Shown here: one piece after another, positions 1,776-50,644 of the stretch
Layout of the letters: each line of letters starts with the position of its first letter
Position numbering within the stretch: position 1 is the stretch's first letter
NCBI RefSeq assembly: GCF_045037415.1
Contig: NZ_CP173438.1
DNA from: Escherichia coli
GTDB taxonomy: Bacteria > Pseudomonadota > Gammaproteobacteria > Enterobacterales > Enterobacteriaceae
DNA: 64,000 bases
Reading direction: 5' to 3' (one strand)
Notes under the pieces: generated by a model
The model's input: the letters and a program-made list of their open reading frames with translations, nothing else
Told to the model about the DNA's origin: nothing
Databases searched by the model: none
Translations under genes and position numbers: made by a program

Positions 1776-1905
1776 CCGACTACGCTCAATTAAGCCCAGC
1801 CATTATCCATGATGTCTGGGTTTTGTTTACTCACGTCGTTCCCTAAAAGCGGCTCCCGGTAAATATAAATCTTCTGTTCATGTCGTAAATCTTGAGGATA
1901 ACCAA

Positions 1906-2301
1906 ATGGTAGAAAGAACCGCTGTTTTCCCTGCTGGCCGACATTCACTGTATGCTGAACATCGTTATTCGGCGGCTATTCGTTCCGGCGATTTGCTGTT
2001 TGTTTCCGGGCAAGTAGGAAGTCGAGAGGACGGAACACCAGAACCCGATTTTCAGCAACAAGTCAGACTGGCATTTGATAATTTGCATGCGACCCTGGCA
2101 GCTGCGGGATGCACTTTTGACGATATCATTGATGTTACGAGCTTTCATACCGATCCGGAAAAACAATTTGAAGACATCATGACGGTCAAAAATGAAATAT
2201 TTAGCGCCCCTCCTTATCCAAACTGGACGGCGGTGGGCGTTACCTGGCTGGCAGGCTTTGATTTTGAAATTAAAGTGATAGCGCGCATCCCTGAGCTGTA
2301 A
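1906..2301 (+). CDS. yjgH: RidA/YjgF-family protein YjgH
   Basis: ORF track 131 aa; position upstream of pyrL; RidA-like sequence. Confidence 0.8.
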   Translation: MVERTAVFPAGRHSLYAEHRYSAAIRSGDLLFVSGQVGSREDGTPEPDFQQQVRLAFDNLHATLAAAGCTFDDIIDVTSFHTDPEKQFEDIMTVKNEIFSAPPYPNWTAVGVTWLAGFDFEIKVIARIPEL

Positions 2302-2581
2302 GCAATAGTGTTAGCCGTTCGTTTTCACACTCCGCCGTATAAGTCGGATGAATGGAATAAAATGCATATCTGATTGCGTGAAAGTGAAAAAGAAAAAAGC
2401 AGGAAATGTCTGCAATTATTGATACCGAACGACAGTTCTCTTCCAGAATCAAAGCAAATAAAAATGCATACATTTTGACTTTTAATTCAAATAAACCGTT
2501 TGCGCTGACAAAATATTGCATCAAATGCTTGCACCGCTTCTGGCTATGAGTATAATGCCGGACAATTTGCCGGGAGGATGT

Positions 2582-2716
2582 ATGGTTCAGTGTGTTCGAC
2601 ATTTTGTCTTACCGCGTCTGAAAAAAGACGCTGGCCTGCCGTTTTTCTTCCCGTTGATCACCCATTCCCAGCCCCTCAATCGAGGGGCTTTTTTTTGCCC
2701 AGGCGTCAGGAGATAA
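2582..2716 (+). CDS. pyrL: pyrBI operon leader peptide
   Basis: Last 44 codons of ORF 2516..2716 (MVQCVRHFVLPRLKKDAGLPFFFPLITHSQPLNRGAFFCPGVRR), ends 4 nt before pyrB. Confidence 0.8.
   Translation: MVQCVRHFVLPRLKKDAGLPFFFPLITHSQPLNRGAFFCPGVRR
2671..2696 (+). terminator. pyrBI attenuator: GC hairpin (gcccctc aatc gaggggc) followed by T8
   Basis: Hairpin plus U-run inside the pyrL coding region, directly upstream of pyrB. Confidence 0.7.
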
Positions 2717-2719
2717 AAG

Positions 2720-3655
2720 ATGGCTAATCCGCTATATCAGAAACATATCATTTCCATAAACGACCTTAGTCGCGATGACCTTAATCTGGTGCTGGCGACA
2801 GCGGCGAAACTGAAAGCAAACCCGCAACCAGAGCTGTTGAAGCACAAAGTCATTGCCAGCTGTTTCTTCGAAGCCTCTACCCGTACCCGCCTCTCTTTCG
2901 AAACATCTATGCACCGCCTGGGTGCCAGCGTGGTGGGCTTCTCCGACAGCGCCAATACATCACTGGGTAAAAAGGGCGAAACGCTGGCCGATACCATTTC
3001 GGTTATCAGCACTTACGTCGATGCGATAGTGATGCGTCATCCGCAGGAAGGTGCGGCGCGCCTGGCCACCGAGTTTTCCGGCAATGTACCGGTACTGAAT
3101 GCCGGTGATGGCTCCAACCAACATCCGACGCAAACCTTGCTGGACTTATTCACTATTCAGGAAACCCAGGGGCGTCTGGACAATCTCCACGTCGCAATGG
3201 TTGGTGACCTGAAATATGGCCGCACCGTTCACTCCCTGACTCAGGCGTTAGCGAAGTTCGACGGCAACCGTTTTTACTTCATCGCGCCGGACGCGCTGGC
3301 AATGCCGCAATACATTCTGGATATGCTCGATGAAAAAGGGATCGCATGGAGTCTGCACAGCTCTATTGAAGAAGTGATGGCGGAAGTAGACATCCTGTAC
3401 ATGACCCGCGTGCAAAAAGAGCGTCTGGACCCGTCCGAGTACGCCAACGTGAAAGCGCAGTTTGTTCTTCGCGCCAGCGATCTCCACAACGCCAAAGCCA
3501 ATATGAAAGTGCTGCATCCGCTGCCGCGTGTTGATGAGATTGCCACCGATGTGGATAAAACGCCACACGCCTGGTACTTCCAGCAGGCAGGCAACGGGAT
3601 TTTCGCTCGCCAGGCGTTACTGGCACTGGTTCTGAATCGCGATCTGGTACTGTAA
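2720..3655 (+). CDS. pyrB: Aspartate carbamoyltransferase catalytic subunit
   Basis: ORF track 311 aa; STRTR and HPLP motifs. Confidence 0.97.
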
Positions 3656-3667
3656 GGGGAAATAGAG

Positions 3668-4129
3668 ATGACACACGATAATAAATTGCAGGTTGAAGCT
3701 ATTAAACGCGGCACGGTAATTGACCATATCCCCGCCCAGATCGGTTTTAAGCTGTTGAGTCTGTTCAAGCTGACCGAAACGGATCAGCGCATCACCATCG
3801 GTCTGAACTTGCCTTCTGGCGAGATGGGCCGCAAAGATCTGATCAAAATCGAAAATACCTTTTTGAGTGAAGATCAGGTAGATCAACTGGCATTGTATGC
3901 GCCGCAAGCCACGGTTAACCGTATCGACAACTATGAAGTGGTGGGTAAATCGCGCCCCAGTCTGCCAGAGCGCATCGACAATGTGCTGGTCTGCCCGAAC
4001 AGCAACTGTATCAGCCATGCCGAACCGGTTTCTTCCAGCTTTGCCGTGCGAAAACGCGCCAATGACATCGCGCTCAAATGCAAATACTGTGAAAAAGAGT
4101 TTTCCCATAATGTGGTGCTGGCCAATTAA
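3668..4129 (+). CDS. pyrI: Aspartate carbamoyltransferase regulatory subunit
   Basis: ORF track 153 aa; C-terminal Cys cluster (CPNSNC...CKYC). Confidence 0.97.
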
Positions 4130-4146
4130 TTGCGGTTGGTAATAAA

Positions 4147-4178
4147 AGTCTGGCTCCCTATAATGAGCCAGACTTTTT
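4147..4178 (+). terminator. Hairpin (agtctggctc / gagccagact) plus T-run after pyrI; loop contains TATAAT, so may double as ridA promoter -10
   Basis: 10-bp inverted repeat followed by ttttt, 18 nt after pyrI stop. Confidence 0.45.
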
Positions 4179-4201
4179 ACCGCTGTAATAAAGGAGAAAT
4201 C

Positions 4202-4588
4202 ATGAGCAAAACTATCGCGACGGAAAATGCACCGGCAGCTATCGGTCCTTACGTACAGGGCGTTGATCTGGGCAATATGATCATCACCTCCGGTCAGATC
4301 CCGGTAAATCCGAAAACGGGTGAAGTACCGGCAGACGTCGCTGCACAGGCACGTCAGTCGCTGGATAACGTAAAAGCGATCGTCGAAGCCGCTGGCCTGA
4401 AAGTGGGCGACATCGTTAAAACCACCGTGTTTGTGAAAGATCTGAACGACTTCGCTACCGTTAATGCTACCTACGAAGCCTTCTTCACCGAACACAACGC
4501 CACCTTCCCGGCACGTTCTTGCGTTGAAGTCGCCCGTCTGCCGAAAGACGTGAAGATTGAGATCGAAGCGATCGCTGTTCGTCGCTAA
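4202..4588 (+). CDS. ridA: Enamine/imine deaminase RidA (YjgF)
   Basis: ORF track frame 4130..4588; start at MSKTIATENAPAAIGPYVQG after AAGGAG; 128 aa. Confidence 0.93.
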   Translation: MSKTIATENAPAAIGPYVQGVDLGNMIITSGQIPVNPKTGEVPADVAAQARQSLDNVKAIVEAAGLKVGDIVKTTVFVKDLNDFATVNATYEAFFTEHNATFPARSCVEVARLPKDVKIEIEAIAVRR

Positions 4589-4644
4589 TCTTGATGGAAA
4601 TCCGGGCTATCATGCCCGGATTAAGTCTGATGACAAACGCAAAA

Positions 4645-4735
4645 TCGCCTGATGCGCTACGCTTATCAGGCCTACGTGATTCCTGCAATTTATTGAATTT
4701 GTTGGCCGGATAAGGCATTTACGCCGCATCCGGCA
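4645..4735. repeat. REP (repetitive extragenic palindrome) units
   Basis: gcctgatgcgctacgcttatcaggcctac and gccggataaggcatttacgccgcatccggc motifs between ridA and mgtA 3' ends. Confidence 0.6.
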
Positions 4736-4793
4736 TGAACAAAGCTTACTTTGTCTGCAATCTGAATCGGGGCTATCGTGCCCAGTTTATTCT

Positions 4794-7490
4794 TTATTGC
4801 CAGCCGTAACGACGGCTATAGAACCCTTTCACCAACTGGGTTAATGTCATATACCCTGCCAGAATCGCAACCAGCCACGGGAAATAGCTTAACGGCAGCG
4901 CCTGTAATTGCAGATAACTGGCCAGCGGTGAAAACGGCAATGCGATCCCGACAATCATCACGATCACGGTCATGATCATTAACGGCCACGATGCACAGCT
5001 CTGAATAAACGGCACACGGCGGGTGCGGATCATATGCACAATCAGCGTTTGCGACAGTAAGCCCACCACAAACCATCCCGACTGGAACAGCGTTTGCGTT
5101 TCCGGCGTGTTGGCATGGAATACCCACCACATCAGGCAAAACGTCAGAATATCGAAGATCGAGCTGATCGGTCCGAAGAAGATCATAAAGCGCCCCAGAT
5201 CCGCCGGGTTCCAACGCTGCGGCTTTTGAATTTGCTCGTCGTCGACGTTATCAAACGGGATCGCCACCTGTGACACATCATACAGCAGGTTCTGAATAAG
5301 CAAGTGTAACGGCAACATCGGCAGGAAGGGCAAGAAAGCACTCGCCACCAGCACGCTGAACACATTACCGAAGTTGGAGCTCGCCGTCATTTTGATGTAT
5401 TTCAGCATGTTGGCGAAAGTGCGACGTCCTTCAATAACCCCCTCTTCCAGCACCATCAGGCTTTTTTCCAGCAGGATGATATCAGCCGCTTCACGGGCAA
5501 TATCTACCGCGCCGTCCACAGAAATGCCGATATCCGCAGCGCGTAAGGCGGGCGCATCATTAATACCATCGCCCATAAAGCCAACCACATGCCCTTCGCG
5601 CTTCAGTAAGGTCACAATGCGTTCTTTATGCATCGGCGTCAGACGAGCAAACAGCGTGGTACGCTGTGCGAGATTTGCCAGTTCGTCGTCAGATAGCGTT
5701 TCAATATCACTACCAATGACCACCTCTCCCGCGTCCAGCCCCACTTCATGGCACACTTTCGCTGCAACTAACTCACTGTCGCCAGTAAGGATTTTTACGG
5801 TAATTCCACTCGCTTTTAATGCCTTCAGTGCCGGAGCAGTTGTCTCTTTCGGCGGATCAAGGAAAGCAATATATCCTTCGAGGATCAGGTCGGATTCATC
5901 CGCCCGCTGGTAATCTCCTTCACGCGCTGGCAGGTATTTCGTCGCCACCGCAACCACGCGCAGCCCCTGACGATTCAGCGTATCAGTAACCCGCTTAATC
6001 TTACGCAGCATGATGTCATCGAGCGGCACAATCTCGCCATTGTGACGCACCTGCGAACACACATTGAGGATTTCCTGCAATGCACCTTTGCAAACCAGCT
6101 GATGGTGCTCGGTATTTTCTGCCACTACCACCGACATCCGGCGACGCTCGAAATCAAACGGAATCTCATCGATTTTTTGCCAACGACTGGCCAGCGAGCG
6201 CGCTGACTCTTCATCCGTACCTTCGAGCACCGCTGTATCGAGCAGGTTTTTAAGTCCGGTCTGATAATGACTGTTCAACCACGCGCTATGCAGCACGCGT
6301 TCGCTGGTTTTACCGGAGATATCGGTATGATTCTCCAGCACAATTTTGTCCTGTGTCAGGGTGCCAGTTTTATCAGTGCACAGAATATCCATTGCGCCAA
6401 AGTTCTGAATAGCATCCAGATGTTTGACGATCACTTTCTGTTTCGACAGCTTTACTGCGCCGCGCGCCAGCGTCGAGGTAACAATCATCGGCAACATTTC
6501 CGGCGTTAAGCCTACCGCGACCGAAAGCGCAAACAGTGCCGCTTCCCACCAGTCGCCTTTGGTGTAACCATTGATTAACAGCACCACCGGAGCCATCACC
6601 AGCATAAAGCGAATCAGCAGCATACTGACGCGGCTGATCCCTTGCTGAAAGGCATTCGGCTCGCTTTCCTGCTCACTAACACGCCCCGCCAGTTGACCAA
6701 ACCAGGTATTGGCACCTGTAGCAATCACCATTGCTTGTGCCGTGCCGCTCACCACGGTGGTGCCCATAAAACACAGGGTGTCGCACTCCAGCGGATTGCT
6801 GTGCTCCGGCTGGCGAGTGGTAGCTGCTTTTTCTACGGGCAGAGACTCACCGGTTAACGACGCCTGAGCGACGAACAGATCCCGCGCCTGCAAGATACGT
6901 AAATCTGCCGGGATCATATCCCCCGCCGCCAGTTTTATAATATCGCCGGGCACCAGCTGGTCGATCGGGATCTCCAGCCAGCCATTTTCGCCTTTGTCGT
7001 TAATTACGCGCAGCACCGTCGCAGTATTGCTGACCATCGCTTTCAGGGCATCTGCCGCTTTAGTGGAACGTGCTTCCTGAATAAAGTTCAGCAACGTAGA
7101 AATAGCGACCATTAGCGCGATAACGCCCGCGGCAAATAAATCTTCCGTGGCGTAAGAAATAGCGCCGAGAATGGTGAGTAAAATATTAAATGGGTTGCGA
7201 TAGCAGACCCATAAATGTACCCACCACGGCGACGGTTGTTGTGCGGGTAATTTATTTTCACCATGTTGTTCGCGGGCAGATTCCACTTCCGCCTGATTTA
7301 ACCCTTCCGGATGGGTGTCGAACGTTTTCCATAATTCTTCTTCGGGCATCACCGCCATTTTCAGGCAATGCGCACTTAAGGACGGCGGGACCGCCGTATT
7401 CACTGTCTGCTGCGCGCCAGGCAATGGATCGCGATGAACCAGACGGGAAGGTAAATGGCGAATGAGCCGGGTAAAAATTTCTTTAAACAT
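4794..7490 (-). CDS. mgtA: Mg2+-importing P-type ATPase
   Basis: ORF track 898 aa; P-type ATPase motifs (DKTGTLT, GDGINDAPAL). Confidence 0.97.
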   Translation of the reverse strand: MFKEIFTRLIRHLPSRLVHRDPLPGAQQTVNTAVPPSLSAHCLKMAVMPEEELWKTFDTHPEGLNQAEVESAREQHGENKLPAQQPSPWWVHLWVCYRNPFNILLTILGAISYATEDLFAAGVIALMVAISTLLNFIQEARSTKAADALKAMVSNTATVLRVINDKGENGWLEIPIDQLVPGDIIKLAAGDMIPADLRILQARDLFVAQASLTGESLPVEKAATTRQPEHSNPLECDTLCFMGTTVVSGTAQAMVIATGANTWFGQLAGRVSEQESEPNAFQQGISRVSMLLIRFMLVMAPVVLLINGYTKGDWWEAALFALSVAVGLTPEMLPMIVTSTLARGAVKLSKQKVIVKHLDAIQNFGAMDILCTDKTGTLTQDKIVLENHTDISGKTSERVLHSAWLNSHYQTGLKNLLDTAVLEGTDEESARSLASRWQKIDEIPFDFERRRMSVVVAENTEHHQLVCKGALQEILNVCSQVRHNGEIVPLDDIMLRKIKRVTDTLNRQGLRVVAVATKYLPAREGDYQRADESDLILEGYIAFLDPPKETTAPALKALKASGITVKILTGDSELVAAKVCHEVGLDAGEVVIGSDIETLSDDELANLAQRTTLFARLTPMHKERIVTLLKREGHVVGFMGDGINDAPALRAADIGISVDGAVDIAREAADIILLEKSLMVLEEGVIEGRRTFANMLKYIKMTASSNFGNVFSVLVASAFLPFLPMLPLHLLIQNLLYDVSQVAIPFDNVDDEQIQKPQRWNPADLGRFMIFFGPISSIFDILTFCLMWWVFHANTPETQTLFQSGWFVVGLLSQTLIVHMIRTRRVPFIQSCASWPLMIMTVIVMIVGIALPFSPLASYLQLQALPLSYFPWLVAILAGYMTLTQLVKGFYSRRYGWQ

Positions 7491-45181: not shown

Positions 45182-45820
45182 ATGCCCGGGCGCTTTGAAC
45201 TAAAACCAACCCTGGAGAAAGTCTGGCACGCGCCGGACAATTTTCGCTTCATGGACCCGCTGCCGCCGATGCATCGTCGGGGGATCATTATTGCCGCCAT
45301 TATATTGGTGGTCGGATTTCTGCTTCCATCTGATGATACGCCCAACGCGCCGGTGGTGACGCGTGAAGCGCAGTTAGATATTCAGTCGCAATCACAACCG
45401 CCGACAGAAGAACAGCTGCGGGCGCAATTAGTCACACCACAAAATGATCCTGATCAGGTGGCTCCGGTCGCTCCAGAACCTATACAGGAAAGCCAGCCAG
45501 AAGAACAGCCGCAAACTACCCAAACACAACCATTCCAGCCAGATAGCGGAATTGATAATCAATGGCGCTCTTACCGTGTCGAACCCGGTAAAACGATGGC
45601 GCAGCTGTTCCGCGACCACGGACTGCCCGCTACCGATGTCTATGCAATGGCGCAGGTAGAAGGCGCGGGTAAGCCGCTGAGTAATTTGCAAAACGGGCAA
45701 ATGGTGAAAATCCGCCAGAACGCCAGCGGCGTGGTGACGGGCTTAACCATTGATACGGGGAATAATCAACAGGTCCTGTTCACCCGCCAGCCGGATGGCA
45801 GTTTTATTCGTGCGCGGTAG
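45182..45820 (+). CDS. ytfB: Cell-division-associated protein YtfB (OapA family)
   Basis: ORF track frame 45146..45820; start at [16 protein letters not shown]; 212 aa. Confidence 0.9.
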
Positions 45821-46451
45821 ATGAAGGGTCAACCAAAAGCCAGCTAAGGATTGTCTCTTTGATGACCTTACGTCTGGCTTCCAGTGCCTGGGGGGAAACC
45901 ATACTGATATGATAAACCAGGCCAAGCGTATGCTGGTTGATCAAATAATATCCGCCAAGCGCAGCAATATTAATATTCACCTGCAATGGGTCGATATCTG
46001 GCTTAAAAATATTTTGTTTCTTCCCTTCATCCAATAAGGATTCCATTAACTGCAAGTGCGCATGGTTAATTTCTAAAAGACGCTGTGATTTTGCATAATG
46101 CACACCCTTACTTTGATTTTCACTATGCACAATTTTTAAAAACCAGGGATTAGAAATATAATAATCCCATGTAAAATCGATTATTTTCTCAATGGCTTTC
46201 TGTGGCGGAAGATCTGAGAAATCAAGGGCCTTTTCTTTTTGTCGAATATCGTTCCAGGTATATTCCAGTACTTCGATAAATAAATTTTCTTTATTACCAA
46301 AGTGGTGATAAACCGTCTGTTTACTGCACCCCGCGGCCTTGACGATATTATCGACTCTGGCCCCTTCGTAACCATATTCGGCAAATTCATTAACCGCGCA
46401 TAACAGCAGCTTTTCTTTCAGGCTCTGTACGTTGCTGGTATCAAGATACAT
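45804..46451 (-). CDS. TetR/AcrR-family transcriptional regulator
   Basis: ORF track 45804..46523; start placed at [51 protein letters not shown] (TetR HTH); divergent from adjacent operon; 3' end overlaps ytfB by 17 nt. Confidence 0.8.
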
Positions 46452-46573
46452 AACGCTTCCCCACGACCTCTTCGTGGTGACTATCATAACCTGATTTGAT
46501 TTCAGCTTCAGAAAAAAGGGCAAAAACTTGTACTTTCATCAGGTTATCAAATGTCCTGTGATCGCCATCGCAT

Positions 46574-46595
46574 ATCAACCAACTAGATGGTTGAT
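46574..46595. promoter_or_regulatory. Inverted repeat atcaacca-actaga-tggttgat; candidate TetR operator in divergent promoter region
   Basis: 8-bp perfect inverted repeat with 6-bp spacer between the TetR gene and the SDR gene. Confidence 0.4.
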
Positions 46596-46663
46596 CTTTT
46601 TATCCTCCAGTCGCAAGCTAATCATCACTAAGGAAACAAAATTCAAAAAAAGAGAGCTATTGT

Positions 46664-47455
46664 ATGAAATCCACTCGTCCTGTTGCCGTGATTACCGGAG
46701 CCGCTCGTGGTATTGGAAAGGGCTGTGCGCTGGAGCTTGCGCGTGGCGGATTTAATCTGCTGATTAATGATCGTCCGGATGCGGATAGCGTAGAAAAATT
46801 ACATGCCACACAACAAGAATGTCTGGCGGAAGGCGTGGAAGTGATTTGCTTCCCTGCTGATGTGGGCGATCTCTCCCTGCATGAAGAGATGCTCGACGCA
46901 GCGCAAAACCAGTGGGGACGTCTGGACTGCCTGCTCAACAACGCAGGCATTTCAGTGAAAAAACGCGGTGACCTTCTCGACCTCGAACCAGACAGCTTCG
47001 ACCAAAATATTGCCATTAACACCCGCGCACCGTTCTTCCTTGCTCAGGCATTCAGTAAGCGCTTACTGGCACAGCCGAAACCGGAAGCAGAACTGCCGCA
47101 CCGCTCGATTATTTTTGTCAGTTCCATCAACGCCATCATGCTGGCGATGAATCGCGGCGAATATACCATTGCCAAAACTGCCGTCTCTGCCGCTGCTCGT
47201 CTGTTTGCTGCTCGCCTTTGTAATGAACAAATTGGCGTATATGAAGTGCGTCCTGGTCTCATCAAAACCGATATGACTATTCCGGCAACGGCCTATTACG
47301 ACGAACTGATTGCCAAAGGTCTGGTGCCGTGGGGACGTTGGGGTTATCCGGCGGATATTGCTTCCACTGTCCGCGCGATGGCGGAAGGTAAACTTATTTA
47401 CACCTGTGGTCAGGCGGTCGCCATCGACGGCGGCTTAAGTATGCCGCGCTTCTGA
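46664..47455 (+). CDS. Short-chain dehydrogenase/reductase (3-oxoacyl reductase-like)
   Basis: ORF track 263 aa; TGAARGIG cofactor motif; YxxxK (YTIAK) catalytic motif. Confidence 0.8.
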   Translation: MKSTRPVAVITGAARGIGKGCALELARGGFNLLINDRPDADSVEKLHATQQECLAEGVEVICFPADVGDLSLHEEMLDAAQNQWGRLDCLLNNAGISVKKRGDLLDLEPDSFDQNIAINTRAPFFLAQAFSKRLLAQPKPEAELPHRSIIFVSSINAIMLAMNRGEYTIAKTAVSAAARLFAARLCNEQIGVYEVRPGLIKTDMTIPATAYYDELIAKGLVPWGRWGYPADIASTVRAMAEGKLIYTCGQAVAIDGGLSMPRF

Positions 47456-47464
47456 GGCTGAATC

Positions 47465-48307
47465 ATGAGAGATCTGTTACAACGCCCGGATTTATTCAGT
47501 ATCAATACCGCGACACTGGGCTATAAAACGCCGCTACCCGCCATTATTGATGCCTGCGCCGCACGCGGTATTGGCGCGATTGCCCCCTGGCGCAGGGAGT
47601 TGCAGAGTGAAGATCTCCAGCAAACCGCCCGCCAGCTTGCTGCCAGTAACATGAACGTTTCCGGTTTGTGCCGTAGCACCTACTACACCGCACCGACGCT
47701 GGCGGAGCGCAAACTGGCGATTGACGATAACCGCCGGGCGCTGGACGACGCCGCTGTACTGAACGCCGCCTGTTATATGCAGGTGGTTGGCGGTCTGCCA
47801 ATGGGAACAAAAGATCTGTACGAAGCACGGGAACAGGTGAAACAAGGGATTCGCCAGTTGCTGCCACATTCGAAAGAGGTCGGCGTGCCAATTGCACTGG
47901 AGCCACTGCACCCGATGACTGCTGCCAATCGTTCTTGTCTGTGCACGTTACGTCAGGCGCTGGACTGGTGTGATGAACTCGATCCCGATGGCGAATTTGG
48001 CCTCGGCGTGGCGGTAGATGTCTACCATGTCTGGTGGGACCCGGATCTCGCCAGTCAGATCCTGCGTGCCGGAAAACGCATCCTCGCGTTTCATGTTTCC
48101 GACTGGTTAGTGCCGACCACCGATCTGGTCAATGACCGTGGAATGCCGGGAGATGGTGTCATCAATATTCCGTCAATTCGTCGGCTGGTTGAAAACGCCG
48201 GATTTAATGGCGCTATTGAACTGGAAATATTCTCACCGTACTGGTGGCAGAAAGATATTAACAGCACGCTGGATATTAGCGTCGATCGCATCGCGCATTA
48301 TTGTTAA
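47465..48307 (+). CDS. Xylose-isomerase-like TIM-barrel protein (sugar phosphate isomerase/epimerase family)
   Basis: ORF track 280 aa; family assignment from overall sequence character only; 9-nt gap from SDR gene. Confidence 0.55.
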   Translation: MRDLLQRPDLFSINTATLGYKTPLPAIIDACAARGIGAIAPWRRELQSEDLQQTARQLAASNMNVSGLCRSTYYTAPTLAERKLAIDDNRRALDDAAVLNAACYMQVVGGLPMGTKDLYEAREQVKQGIRQLLPHSKEVGVPIALEPLHPMTAANRSCLCTLRQALDWCDELDPDGEFGLGVAVDVYHVWWDPDLASQILRAGKRILAFHVSDWLVPTTDLVNDRGMPGDGVINIPSIRRLVENAGFNGAIELEIFSPYWWQKDINSTLDISVDRIAHYC

Positions 48308-48310
48308 GGA

Positions 48311-49093
48311 ATGATCATGAATGACCAACCCGTTCTGTTCAGCAGAGCGGCGGCTTCTTGCCGCCTGACATTGAACCGTGAAGATAAATGTCATGCTATT
48401 AATGAAGAAATGATCGAATCTCTCGACCATTATTTAAATGAAATTGAAAATGACACGGCATTACGCTTAGTCGAATTAACGGCAACCGGCGATAAATTCT
48501 TTTGTGCGGGTGGCGATATTAAATCGTGGTCGGCCTATTCGCCATTAGATATGGGCAGAAAATGGATTAAACGCGGTAATGACGTTTTTAATCGCCTGCG
48601 AAACTTACCCCAATTAACCGTTGCGAATCTCAACGGTCATACCATCGGCGGTGGTATTGAACTTGCCTTGTGCTGCGATATTCGTATCGCTCGCCCCGGC
48701 GCGAAATTCTCTAACCCGGAAGTGATGCTCGGCATGGTGCCAGGCTGGATGGGCATTGAGCGAGTGCTTAATCAGGTTGGTCCTGTGGTCGGTCGCCAGA
48801 TGCTGATGCTGGGTAAACGCCTGACGGCGCAGGAAGCTCAGACAGCGAATTTAATTGATGAAGTGGTAGAAAAAGAACAGGTGGAAAGCTGGATGGCGAA
48901 CCAGTTAGCGCAGCTGGAAAAATGTGGTCCGGTGGCACTGGCACATATTAAGCAACTGATTCTGGCGCTGGAAAATAAACACGCCGATTACTCGCACCAG
49001 TTGCTGGCTGGATTAATGTCCGCCACTCAGGATTGCCAACAGGCGACGCACGCATTTGCCGAAAAAGCCGGCGTGAGCTTCCACAATCAATAA
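48311..49093 (+). CDS. Enoyl-CoA hydratase/isomerase (crotonase) family protein
   Basis: ORF track 260 aa; FCAGGDIK and GGGIELAL crotonase motifs; true start may be ATG at 48317. Confidence 0.8.
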   Translation: MIMNDQPVLFSRAAASCRLTLNREDKCHAINEEMIESLDHYLNEIENDTALRLVELTATGDKFFCAGGDIKSWSAYSPLDMGRKWIKRGNDVFNRLRNLPQLTVANLNGHTIGGGIELALCCDIRIARPGAKFSNPEVMLGMVPGWMGIERVLNQVGPVVGRQMLMLGKRLTAQEAQTANLIDEVVEKEQVESWMANQLAQLEKCGPVALAHIKQLILALENKHADYSHQLLAGLMSATQDCQQATHAFAEKAGVSFHNQ

Positions 49094-49102
49094 GGAAATT
49101 GT

Positions 49103-50644
49103 ATGCGTAAGTTATCAACCGCCGAGACACTGGCGGCGCAAATTCAGGACGGCGCAACCATTGCCATTAGCGGCAACGGCGGCGGCATGGTGGAAGCTGA
49201 CCATATTCTGGCCGCCATTGAAGCGCGCTTTCTGCAAACCGGACACCCGCGCGATCTGACATTAATCCACTCGCTGGGTATTGGCGATCGCGACAGCAAA
49301 GGCACTAACCGTTTTGCTCACGCCGAAATGCTCAAACGCATTATTGCCGGACATTTTACCTGGTCGCCCAAGATGCAGGAACTGGTGAAAAACAATGCTA
49401 TTGAAGCCTACTGTTTCCCTGGTGGCGTAATTCAGGCACTGCTGCGGGAGATCGGTGCCGGACGTCCGGGGCTTTTTACCCACGTTGGGCTGGGATCGTT
49501 TGTTGATCCACGCAATGGTGGCGGTAAGTCGAATGAATGCACTACCGACGACCTGGTAGAACTGATTGAAATCGACGGTGAAACCAAACTTCGTTATCGC
49601 CCTTTCAAAGTGGATTACGCGATTTTGCGTGGCACTTATGCCGATCCACGAGGCAACGTTAGCCTCGAAGAAGAAGCGATTGATATGGATAGCTATTCGA
49701 TGGCGCTGGCAGCACACAACAGCGGCGGCAAAGTGTTCGTACAGGTACGCGATGTGCTGGAAGCAGGTACCATTGAACCACGTCGGGTCAAGCTACCAGG
49801 AATTCTGGTTGATGGCATCGTTGAGCACCGCGAACAACCGCAAACCTATCTTGGTGGTTACGACCTGACCATCAGCGGTCAACATCGCCGTCTAAGTTCT
49901 AACGACGCTATTGAACTGGTTAGTCATCCGGTGCGTCGCCTGATTGCCCGTCGGGCAGCGCGGGAACTGGTGGCAGGCGCTTCAACCAACTTTGGCTTTG
50001 GTATTCCCGGCGGTATTCCTGGGGTTGCGCTGCGCGAAGGCGTGCCTTATCAAAGTTTGTGGCTGAGTGTAGAACAGGGTGTGCATAACGGCATGATGCT
50101 TGATGATGCTCTGTTCGGCTGCGCCCGTAACGCCGATGCCATTATTCCATCACTCGATCAATTTGAATTCTACAGTGGCGGCGGCATCGATATCACCTTC
50201 CTCGGCATGGGAGAGATGGATCAATACGGTAACGTCAACGTATCCCATCTCAATGGCAATCTGATTGGCCCCGGCGGATTTCTCGAAATTGCACAAAACG
50301 CCCGTAAAGTGGTGTTTTGCGGTACGTTCGACGCCAAAGGCAGCAAGATTGATGTAACGCCAGATGGCTTGCATATCGCCCAGTCAGGTCAAATCCCTAA
50401 ACTGGTTACCCAGGTGGAAAAAATTACTTTTAGCGCCGCCTACGCACAGCAAAGTGGTCAGGAAGTGTTGTATATCACTGAACGCGCAGTATTCCAGTTA
50501 ACGGCAGAAGGCGTTGAATTAATTGAAATCGCGCCGGGTGTGGAGATTGAGCGCGACATTCTGCCGTATATGGCCTTCCGTCCGATTATCAGGCACCCAC
50601 GTCTGATGGAAAGTAGCCTGTTTATGCCAATGGAGGATGCATGA
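49103..50644 (+). CDS. Family I CoA-transferase (fused alpha/beta, YdiF/acetate CoA-transferase-like)
   Basis: ORF track 513 aa; two-domain 3-oxoacid CoA-transferase-like sequence. Confidence 0.7.
   Translation: MRKLSTAETLAAQIQDGATIAISGNGGGMVEADHILAAIEARFLQTGHPRDLTLIHSLGIGDRDSKGTNRFAHAEMLKRIIAGHFTWSPKMQELVKNNAIEAYCFPGGVIQALLREIGAGRPGLFTHVGLGSFVDPRNGGGKSNECTTDDLVELIEIDGETKLRYRPFKVDYAILRGTYADPRGNVSLEEEAIDMDSYSMALAAHNSGGKVFVQVRDVLEAGTIEPRRVKLPGILVDGIVEHREQPQTYLGGYDLTISGQHRRLSSNDAIELVSHPVRRLIARRAARELVAGASTNFGFGIPGGIPGVALREGVPYQSLWLSVEQGVHNGMMLDDALFGCARNADAIIPSLDQFEFYSGGGIDITFLGMGEMDQYGNVNVSHLNGNLIGPGGFLEIAQNARKVVFCGTFDAKGSKIDVTPDGLHIAQSGQIPKLVTQVEKITFSAAYAQQSGQEVLYITERAVFQLTAEGVELIEIAPGVEIERDILPYMAFRPIIRHPRLMESSLFMPMEDA

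Follow-up and report, generated by a model that had tools for sequence, protein, structure and literature searches.

The window, by which we mean the whole stretch of 64,000 nucleotides of Escherichia coli chromosomal DNA analyzed here, carries the genes ytfE-cycA-fklB-ytfB, followed by a TetR-family regulator gene on the minus strand and then by six plus-strand genes that diverge from it. The query stretch is 100% identical to B2-type strains, for example NC101. The six divergent genes, which as a whole (46664..54083, plus strand, from the SDR gene to the MFS gene) are the proposed target of the regulation discussed below, encode an SDR (46664-47455), a xylose-isomerase-like TIM barrel protein (47465-48307), an enoyl-CoA hydratase (48311-49093), a family-I CoA transferase (49103-50644), a FAD-dependent oxidoreductase of the fumarate-reductase type (50641-52713) and an MFS transporter of the anion:cation-symporter type (52806-54083), all on the plus strand. 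This gene content suggests a pathway for the CoA-dependent breakdown of an organic acid. We found the intergenic region together with the operon in 3131 of 5426 complete E. coli genomes (~58%), and also in several other genera of Enterobacterales. The operon is divergent from the regulator and has the same gene order in Salmonella, Leminorella, Lelliottia and metagenomic relatives (regulator identity 58-67%); two of the loci (L054 and L055) are truncated contigs in which the gene order is visible in part, and the six-gene operon was seen elsewhere wherever the contig was long enough. The divergent arrangement of regulator and operon was also observed in Klebsiella spallanzanii and in other Escherichia species. 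Beyond the MFS gene, the minus strand carries at 54226-55987 an XRE-type HTH gene (163 aa), then a 168-aa ORF with no Pfam match, and then a gene for a 253-aa HipA_C protein whose start overlaps the preceding stop. The arrangement resembles a hipBA-like toxin-antitoxin module that is split or made of three parts; in BL21(DE3), rplI comes directly after the MFS gene at this place.

The regulator gene (45804..46451, minus strand) is an intact form of ytfA and encodes a TetR/AcrR-family protein of 215 aa. Its assignment to the TetR family, made by the initial annotation for the gene on the left, was borne out by two Pfam domains, TetR_N (PF00440, E = 1.9e-14) and TetR_C_29 (PF17938, E = 1.8e-30). 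When YtfA was compared with the NCBIfam equivalog models, none reached its cut-off, and the solved structure nearest to it was 3npi, an uncharacterised TetR protein. The start of the gene at 46451 is the RefSeq-annotated start in BL21(DE3) and other strains. In K-12, ytfA is a pseudogene: MG1655 keeps the last 134 codons, encoding the C-terminal part, as pseudogene b4205, its homology to the window ends at 46206, and yjfZ stands where the window has the HTH half of the gene, the intergenic region and the six-gene operon.

Between the two divergent start codons lies a 22-bp palindrome, ATCAACCAACTAGATGGTTGAT (46574..46595, no strand assigned), composed of a left arm ATCAACCA (46574-46581), the center ACTAGA (46582-46587) and a right arm TGGTTGAT (46588-46595). 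The initial annotation had described it as an inverted repeat with 8-bp arms and a 6-bp spacer, about 70 nt from the SDR start and about 120 nt from the TetR start, and both the sequence and these positions were confirmed: the distance is 68 nt to the SDR ATG (46664) and 122 nt to the TetR ATG (46451). Complementarity of the 8-nt arms is perfect, and the CTAG at the center is itself palindromic, so that the 22-mer pairs at 10 of 11 positions; a repeat search reported it as 11-nt arms, 91% complementary, with no gap. It is the sole repeat of such quality within the 212-nt intergenic region. Perfect inverted repeats with arms of 8 nt and a spacer between 0 and 10 nt occur 36 times in the whole window, in three cases with a spacer of 6, and one 22-mer reaching 10/11 pairs was observed where first-order Markov simulations predicted 0.77 per window. 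The palindrome by itself is no rarer than chance in 64 kb, and its significance comes from its conservation and not from the repeat.

No other copy of the motif was found in the 64-kb window with up to 3 mismatches. The initial annotation had pointed to the region upstream of the MFS gene as a place where the same motif might recur, but neither this search nor half-site scans with spacers of 0-8 nt detected it there, and the orthologues did not show one at this place either. The MFS gene lacks a site of its own and is probably co-transcribed with the rest of the operon. A look-alike before the MFS gene, ACCAACAACCAGGGTT at ~52764, was considered and set aside; it is weak, and Salmonella, Leminorella, Lelliottia and the distant relatives do not conserve it.

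In order to examine the conservation of the palindrome, orthologous loci were gathered via the regulator protein. These comprised E. coli alleles, E. albertii, E. whittamii, K. spallanzanii, Entomohabitans, Salmonella, Leminorella, Lelliottia and six metagenomic or draft-genome relatives, and 14 intergenic regions were aligned (alignment A3). The initial annotation had named absence of the motif from orthologous loci as grounds for rejecting the site; we found instead that none of the 19 orthologous TetR/SDR intergenic regions lacks the 22-mer. It is conserved amid diverging flanks, the mean column identity of the alignment being 55%, and the longest invariant blocks among the 14 aligned regions are AACCAAC (46578-46583) and GGTTG.TC (46589-46596), which make up an invariant core spanning 46578..46596. 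E. coli alleles of the intergenic region are 84-100% identical to the window, and in five of them (intergenic identity down to 84-90%) the sole change within the 22-mer is a T/C substitution at the central position 46584. One metagenomic relative (L054, regulator identity 57-59%) has two copies of the site, at 4241-4262 and 4288-4310 of its locus. The first overlaps a predicted -35 element as in E. coli (see below), and the second, AAACCAACCGAATGGTTGGTTT, begins 3 nt downstream of the inferred -10, which would put this copy on top of the predicted TSS, where a repressor site may be expected to lie.

The right arm of the palindrome contains the hexamer TTGATC (46591..46596, plus strand), identical in 18 of 19 loci and replaced by TTGTTC in the remaining one (L051). 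It is separated by exactly 17 nt in all 19 loci, without any indel, from a second hexamer, CAAGCT (46614..46619, plus strand), which reads CATnTT in other genera and TAAGTT in L054; the sequence of the spacer itself is not conserved. In this second hexamer, of the general form [C/T]A[A/T]nnT, A2 (46615) and T6 (46619) are invariant in the alignment, and these are the most important bases of a sigma-70 -10 element. We infer that TTGATC and CAAGCT are the -35 and -10 elements of the operon promoter, with a TSS near 46626. The putative -10 matches TATAAT at only 2-3 of 6 positions, a weak match as expected for an activator-dependent promoter. A plain consensus scan of the region found no promoter, and the predicted overlap of the palindrome with a core promoter element rests on TTGATC lying 17 nt upstream of a hexamer invariant at A2 and T6. 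Two other promoter assignments were considered and rejected. In one, GATCTT (46593-46598) would be the -10 of a class II CRP promoter with CRP at about -41; this is geometrically possible, but its T6 is replaced by C in Leminorella and by A in Lelliottia, and the strict 17-nt spacing of TTGATC from the later hexamer, invariant at A2 and T6, would be left unexplained. In the other, GCTAAT (46617-46622) would be the -10, and its A2 is absent in all orthologues. The right arm and -35 also contain a GATC (Dam) site (46593-46596), which is kept in 18 of 19 orthologues.

Abutting the palindrome on its left is a CRP site, TGTGA-TCGCCA-TCGCA (46557..46572), which matches TGTGA-N6-TCACA at 9 of 10 positions. 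Its half-site bases are invariant in the alignment, and the site scores 8-10/10 in all 19 loci. The center of the site lies at -61.5 from the inferred TSS, or at -60.5 in seven loci, which is a class I position. CRP ChIP-seq in ETEC H10407 yielded a peak that was assigned to TGTGATCACTATCGCA, between ETEC_4557 and ytfA (Haycocks et al., PMC4287617). We located TGTGATCACTATCGCA as an exact match in H10407 at the homologous position, 4 nt to the left of the palindrome; the peak coordinate (4940903, PMC4287617) and the CRP site (4941092-4941107 in NC_017633.1) are ~190-200 bp apart, the peak falling inside the SDR gene. A second GATC (Dam) site was observed inside the CRP site (46560-46563). The CRP site is in turn adjoined on its left by an unexplained conserved element, tttCAtcagGTTAtc (46534..46548), in which C46537, A46538 and T46545 never vary among the 14 orthologues and A46546 is kept almost throughout (90% or more). 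The distance of this element to the CRP site is constant and its distance to the regulator -10 is variable, and it could be an UP-like element or a site for a further factor.

The co-occurrence of the motif with relatives of the regulator provides the strongest in-silico evidence that the palindrome is the operator of YtfA. In 19 alphaproteobacterial loci (L013-L031) carrying a TetR protein ~40% identical to YtfA, we searched for TCAACCA-N2/N6-TGGTTGA with up to 1 mismatch and found 30 matches in 18 of the 19 loci; no match was obtained in 20 shuffles or in 15 control loci whose TetR proteins are more distant. All of the alphaproteobacterial matches are located either ~80-155 nt upstream of the start of the TetR match or just 3′ of the TetR gene, before the next operon (locus coordinates about 3846-3919 and about 4607-5069, mostly 4607-4791). 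In the two of the 19 loci that were checked against Pfam (L017 and L024), the neighboring genes are of other kinds and encode an amidase, an NAD-dependent epimerase and a GNAT acetyltransferase. The recognition helix common to the motif-bearing clades reads (S/N)KQ(T/L)VYHHFGNK, and that of two aligned controls SVG(S/N)VYHHFGNK. As the half-site occurs beside distant regulators next to unrelated genes, the motif appears to follow the regulator clade independently of the target genes, and the finding of such sites beside ~40% identical regulators with other neighbors suggests that the clade keeps its DNA specificity while its target genes differ.

The initial annotation had proposed that a TetR-family protein controls a divergent promoter pair through this site. 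The part of that proposal concerning the operon is supported by the conservation of the site in 19 of 19 loci and the recurrence of its half-site with distant relatives, but the part concerning the regulator promoter does not. The inferred -10 of the regulator gene, TATGAT (46488..46483, minus strand), in which T1, A2 and T6 are invariant in the 14 orthologues and whose distance to the ytfA ATG is roughly fixed among orthologues, lies ~86 bp from the palindrome, and control of both promoters is therefore not supported. Moreover, in Entomohabitans an insertion places the regulator start ~350 nt from the site, and the operator stays with the operon promoter. The locus shows an adjacent gene encoding a TetR_N HTH and an intergenic palindromic site in the range of ~15-30 bp, with no overlap of that site with the predicted regulator promoter. 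The site appears to be placed to repress the operon only, and autoregulation through it is not supported. We also considered a 10-nt inverted repeat, ATAACCTGAT/ATCAGGTTAT (46486-46495/46538-46547), as a second operator over the regulator promoter. This was rejected, as only ATAAC/GTTAT persists outside Escherichia and the left copy of the repeat is part of the regulator -10 region.

The 8+6+8 geometry given by the initial annotation is correct in that the arms are perfect, but the site can be read in further registers as well. Conservation is asymmetric about the dyad of the 22-mer: the outer left arm varies (ATC, ACC, TCC, CTT, CTA, TTT), while AC at 46582-46583, on the inner left side, is invariant and the bases facing it across the dyad vary. 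The center of the invariant block is displaced rightward by ~2 bp from the dyad of the 22-mer and coincides with that of an inner 18-mer, ACCAACyA-NN-TGGTTGAT, which has the same 7+2+7 geometry as the alphaproteobacterial sites and the RutR box TTGACCAnnTGGTCAA. Owing to the CAAC/GTTG repeats (CAACCAAC), registers with 2-bp and 6-bp spacers overlap, several relatives showing both, and the enteric 22-mer is readable as two overlapping 18-bp pseudo-palindromes offset by 4 bp. A tentative reading, which in our estimation has a minor chance of being correct, is that the YtfA clade recognizes a single half-site, TCAACCA, at two spacings, namely 2 bp (a RutR-like 18-mer that is common in alphaproteobacteria) and 6 bp (the enteric 22-mer), and that the enteric site would comprise two overlapping 18-bp sites, occupied either by a pair of dimers on separate faces of the helix or by a single dimer slipping from one register to the other. 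The off-center conservation supports such a composite site, although the asymmetry may instead partly reflect the -35 function of the right arm.

Taken together, these observations lead us to propose, with a probability of roughly 0.78, that the TetR-family repressor YtfA, encoded next to the palindrome, uses it as its operator, located at the promoter of the divergent six-gene operon and abutted by a CRP site. The operator would span approximately -52 to -31, that is, the gap between CRP and the -35 as well as the -35 itself. Repression by occlusion would be the natural reading of a TetR dimer at such an operator: in the absence of inducer, YtfA on the operator would obstruct sigma-70 region 4 as well as the contacts between alpha-CTD and CRP, and the operon would be off. 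Inducer would release YtfA, after which transcription would still need cAMP-CRP. By analogy with TetR regulators of CoA-dependent pathways, the inducer is presumably a transported organic acid or a CoA-thioester intermediate. Given the combination of a repressor with a requirement for cAMP-CRP, expression of the operon would be confined to conditions in which the substrate is available and preferred carbon sources are lacking. In E. coli FXCREC035, a urine isolate, two IS30-like ISApl1 copies and an inversion split the regulator gene (positions 1781-4306 of locus L005), and the operator and operon are present there without an intact repressor; this isolate would be a natural derepressed variant if the model is right.

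The palindrome might instead act as RNA, in which case a hairpin followed by a T-run on the plus strand would represent an intrinsic terminator or a leader attenuator. A consensus scan indeed flagged 46574-46595 together with CTTTTTATCC as terminator-like, the RNA hairpin folds at -9 kcal/mol (z = -2.55 relative to shuffles), and a T-run follows the right arm in most orthologues. However, the gene upstream is on the other strand, and the nearest upstream gene on the plus strand, ytfB, ends ~750 nt away; the stem has only 3 G-C pairs. In addition, the arms are kept as sequence, with no compensatory changes, and substitutions in the outer arm, such as CTTAACCA opposite TGGTTGAT, break the pairing. 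The fixed order of CRP site, -35, 17-nt spacer and -10 sets the palindrome upstream of the likely TSS, and the same half-sites are found beside distant regulators in unrelated contexts. The palindrome does not fit a Rho-independent terminator well, and we consider a function as RNA extremely improbable. The presence of TTGATC in the right arm at exactly 17 nt from the -10 raises a different question, namely whether the block might be conserved only as promoter DNA, comprising the -35 and a stretch contacted by alpha-CTD, with the dyad incidental and no dedicated repressor. A palindrome this good is expected by chance ~0.8 times per 64 kb, and part of the invariance of the right arm could stem from its role as a -35 alone. 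Nevertheless, AACCAAC in the left arm is invariant even though it lies outside any promoter hexamer, the half-site pair recurs beside ~40% identical relatives with other promoters and targets (30 matches, versus 0 in controls), and L054 has a second copy downstream of its -10. Conservation as promoter DNA only is, in our judgment, unlikely.

A protein other than YtfA might instead bind the site, whether a different TetR-family protein, most plausibly RutR, or another unlinked factor. The RutR consensus TTGACCAnnTGGTCAA and its 7+2+7 geometry (PMC2475637) match the inner register, that is, the inner 16 bp of the site. When CCAACyAGATGGTTGA was compared with the RutR consensus by manual count, 9 of 14 positions matched for the window allele and 10 of 14 for the BL21 allele, which is in the range of weak sites and far from the consensus; RutR sites bound in vivo scored 7-13/14 (PMC2475637). 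The match is poor, however, at the outer positions that tell the two motifs apart (CAAC versus TGAC), and the motif co-occurs tightly with the YtfA clade, including at the alphaproteobacterial loci. Binding by RutR or another unlinked protein is very unlikely, the adjacent regulator being the parsimonious partner of the site.

The operator model concerns a catabolic operon that has no assigned substrate, is widespread in E. coli and is missing from K-12, and this absence may be why the operon is unstudied. Literature searches found no functional study of ytfA, ETEC_4557, the gene set of the operon or the half-site. The regulator's site and the function of the operon are absent from the searchable literature, and while the kind of switch is ordinary, this one is not yet described. 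Its value is practical and not conceptual, as the logic (a specific repressor AND cAMP-CRP) is that of the textbook: a defined operator and promoter would offer a direct handle on the substrate of an orphan pathway, and might also yield a new TetR part that responds to a ligand.

Several known systems resemble the arrangement proposed for YtfA. In the classical pairs TetR-tetO and AcrR-acrAB and in catabolic repressors that respond to acyl-CoA, such as Bacillus FadR, PaaR and KstR2, as here, a regulator with a TetR_N HTH is divergent from its target, and these pairs also share with the YtfA locus an AT-rich intergenic palindrome of ~20 bp over a core promoter element (a predicted one for YtfA) and a target consisting of a CoA-dependent catabolic operon and a transporter. 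In comparison with tetR/tetA, the YtfA site would overlap the operon promoter only, and simple autoregulation is not indicated. Some sources label the Salmonella orthologue of YtfA as KstR2. We rejected this label, given that examples of the KstR2 motif read TACCAAGCAAGTGCTTGCTTAGGT (PMC3068626), from which the motif described here differs, and that the cut-off of no equivalog model was reached. The solved TetR proteins matching the HTH region of YtfA include RutR, and the RutR box TTGACCAnnTGGTCAA (PMC2475637) shares with the YtfA site the half-site core ACCA/TGGT, as well as sharing a 7-nt arm and 2-nt spacer with the alphaproteobacterial sites and with the inner register of the enteric site (TCAACCAnnTGGTTGA). 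However, the two motifs differ in the outer bases of the half-site (TCAA versus TTGA), the enteric site has perfect arms only with a 6-bp spacer, and the scores of YtfA for the RutR equivalog models, 37.8 and 33.6 bits, fall far short of the cut-offs of 368 and 230, respectively.

With regard to the promoter, a close parallel is that of catabolic promoters under dual control by class I cAMP-CRP and a pathway-specific repressor, such as lacP1 with LacI, which would share with the proposed YtfA system a CRP site at about -61.5, a weak -10 and a specific repressor site within the promoter, resulting in AND logic between inducer and carbon limitation. The two differ in that the YtfA operator would cover the -35, flanked by the CRP site on one side and the -10 on the other, and not the TSS, which in our case is a predicted one, as is the dependence on CRP apart from the ChIP-seq peak. 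QacR binds as two offset dimers on the 28-bp IR1. The 4-bp offset of the enteric YtfA site is smaller than that of QacR, and this likeness is best regarded as a lead. Overall, the site is most consistent with a standard TetR-type operator at a catabolic promoter under the dual control of a repressor and CRP.
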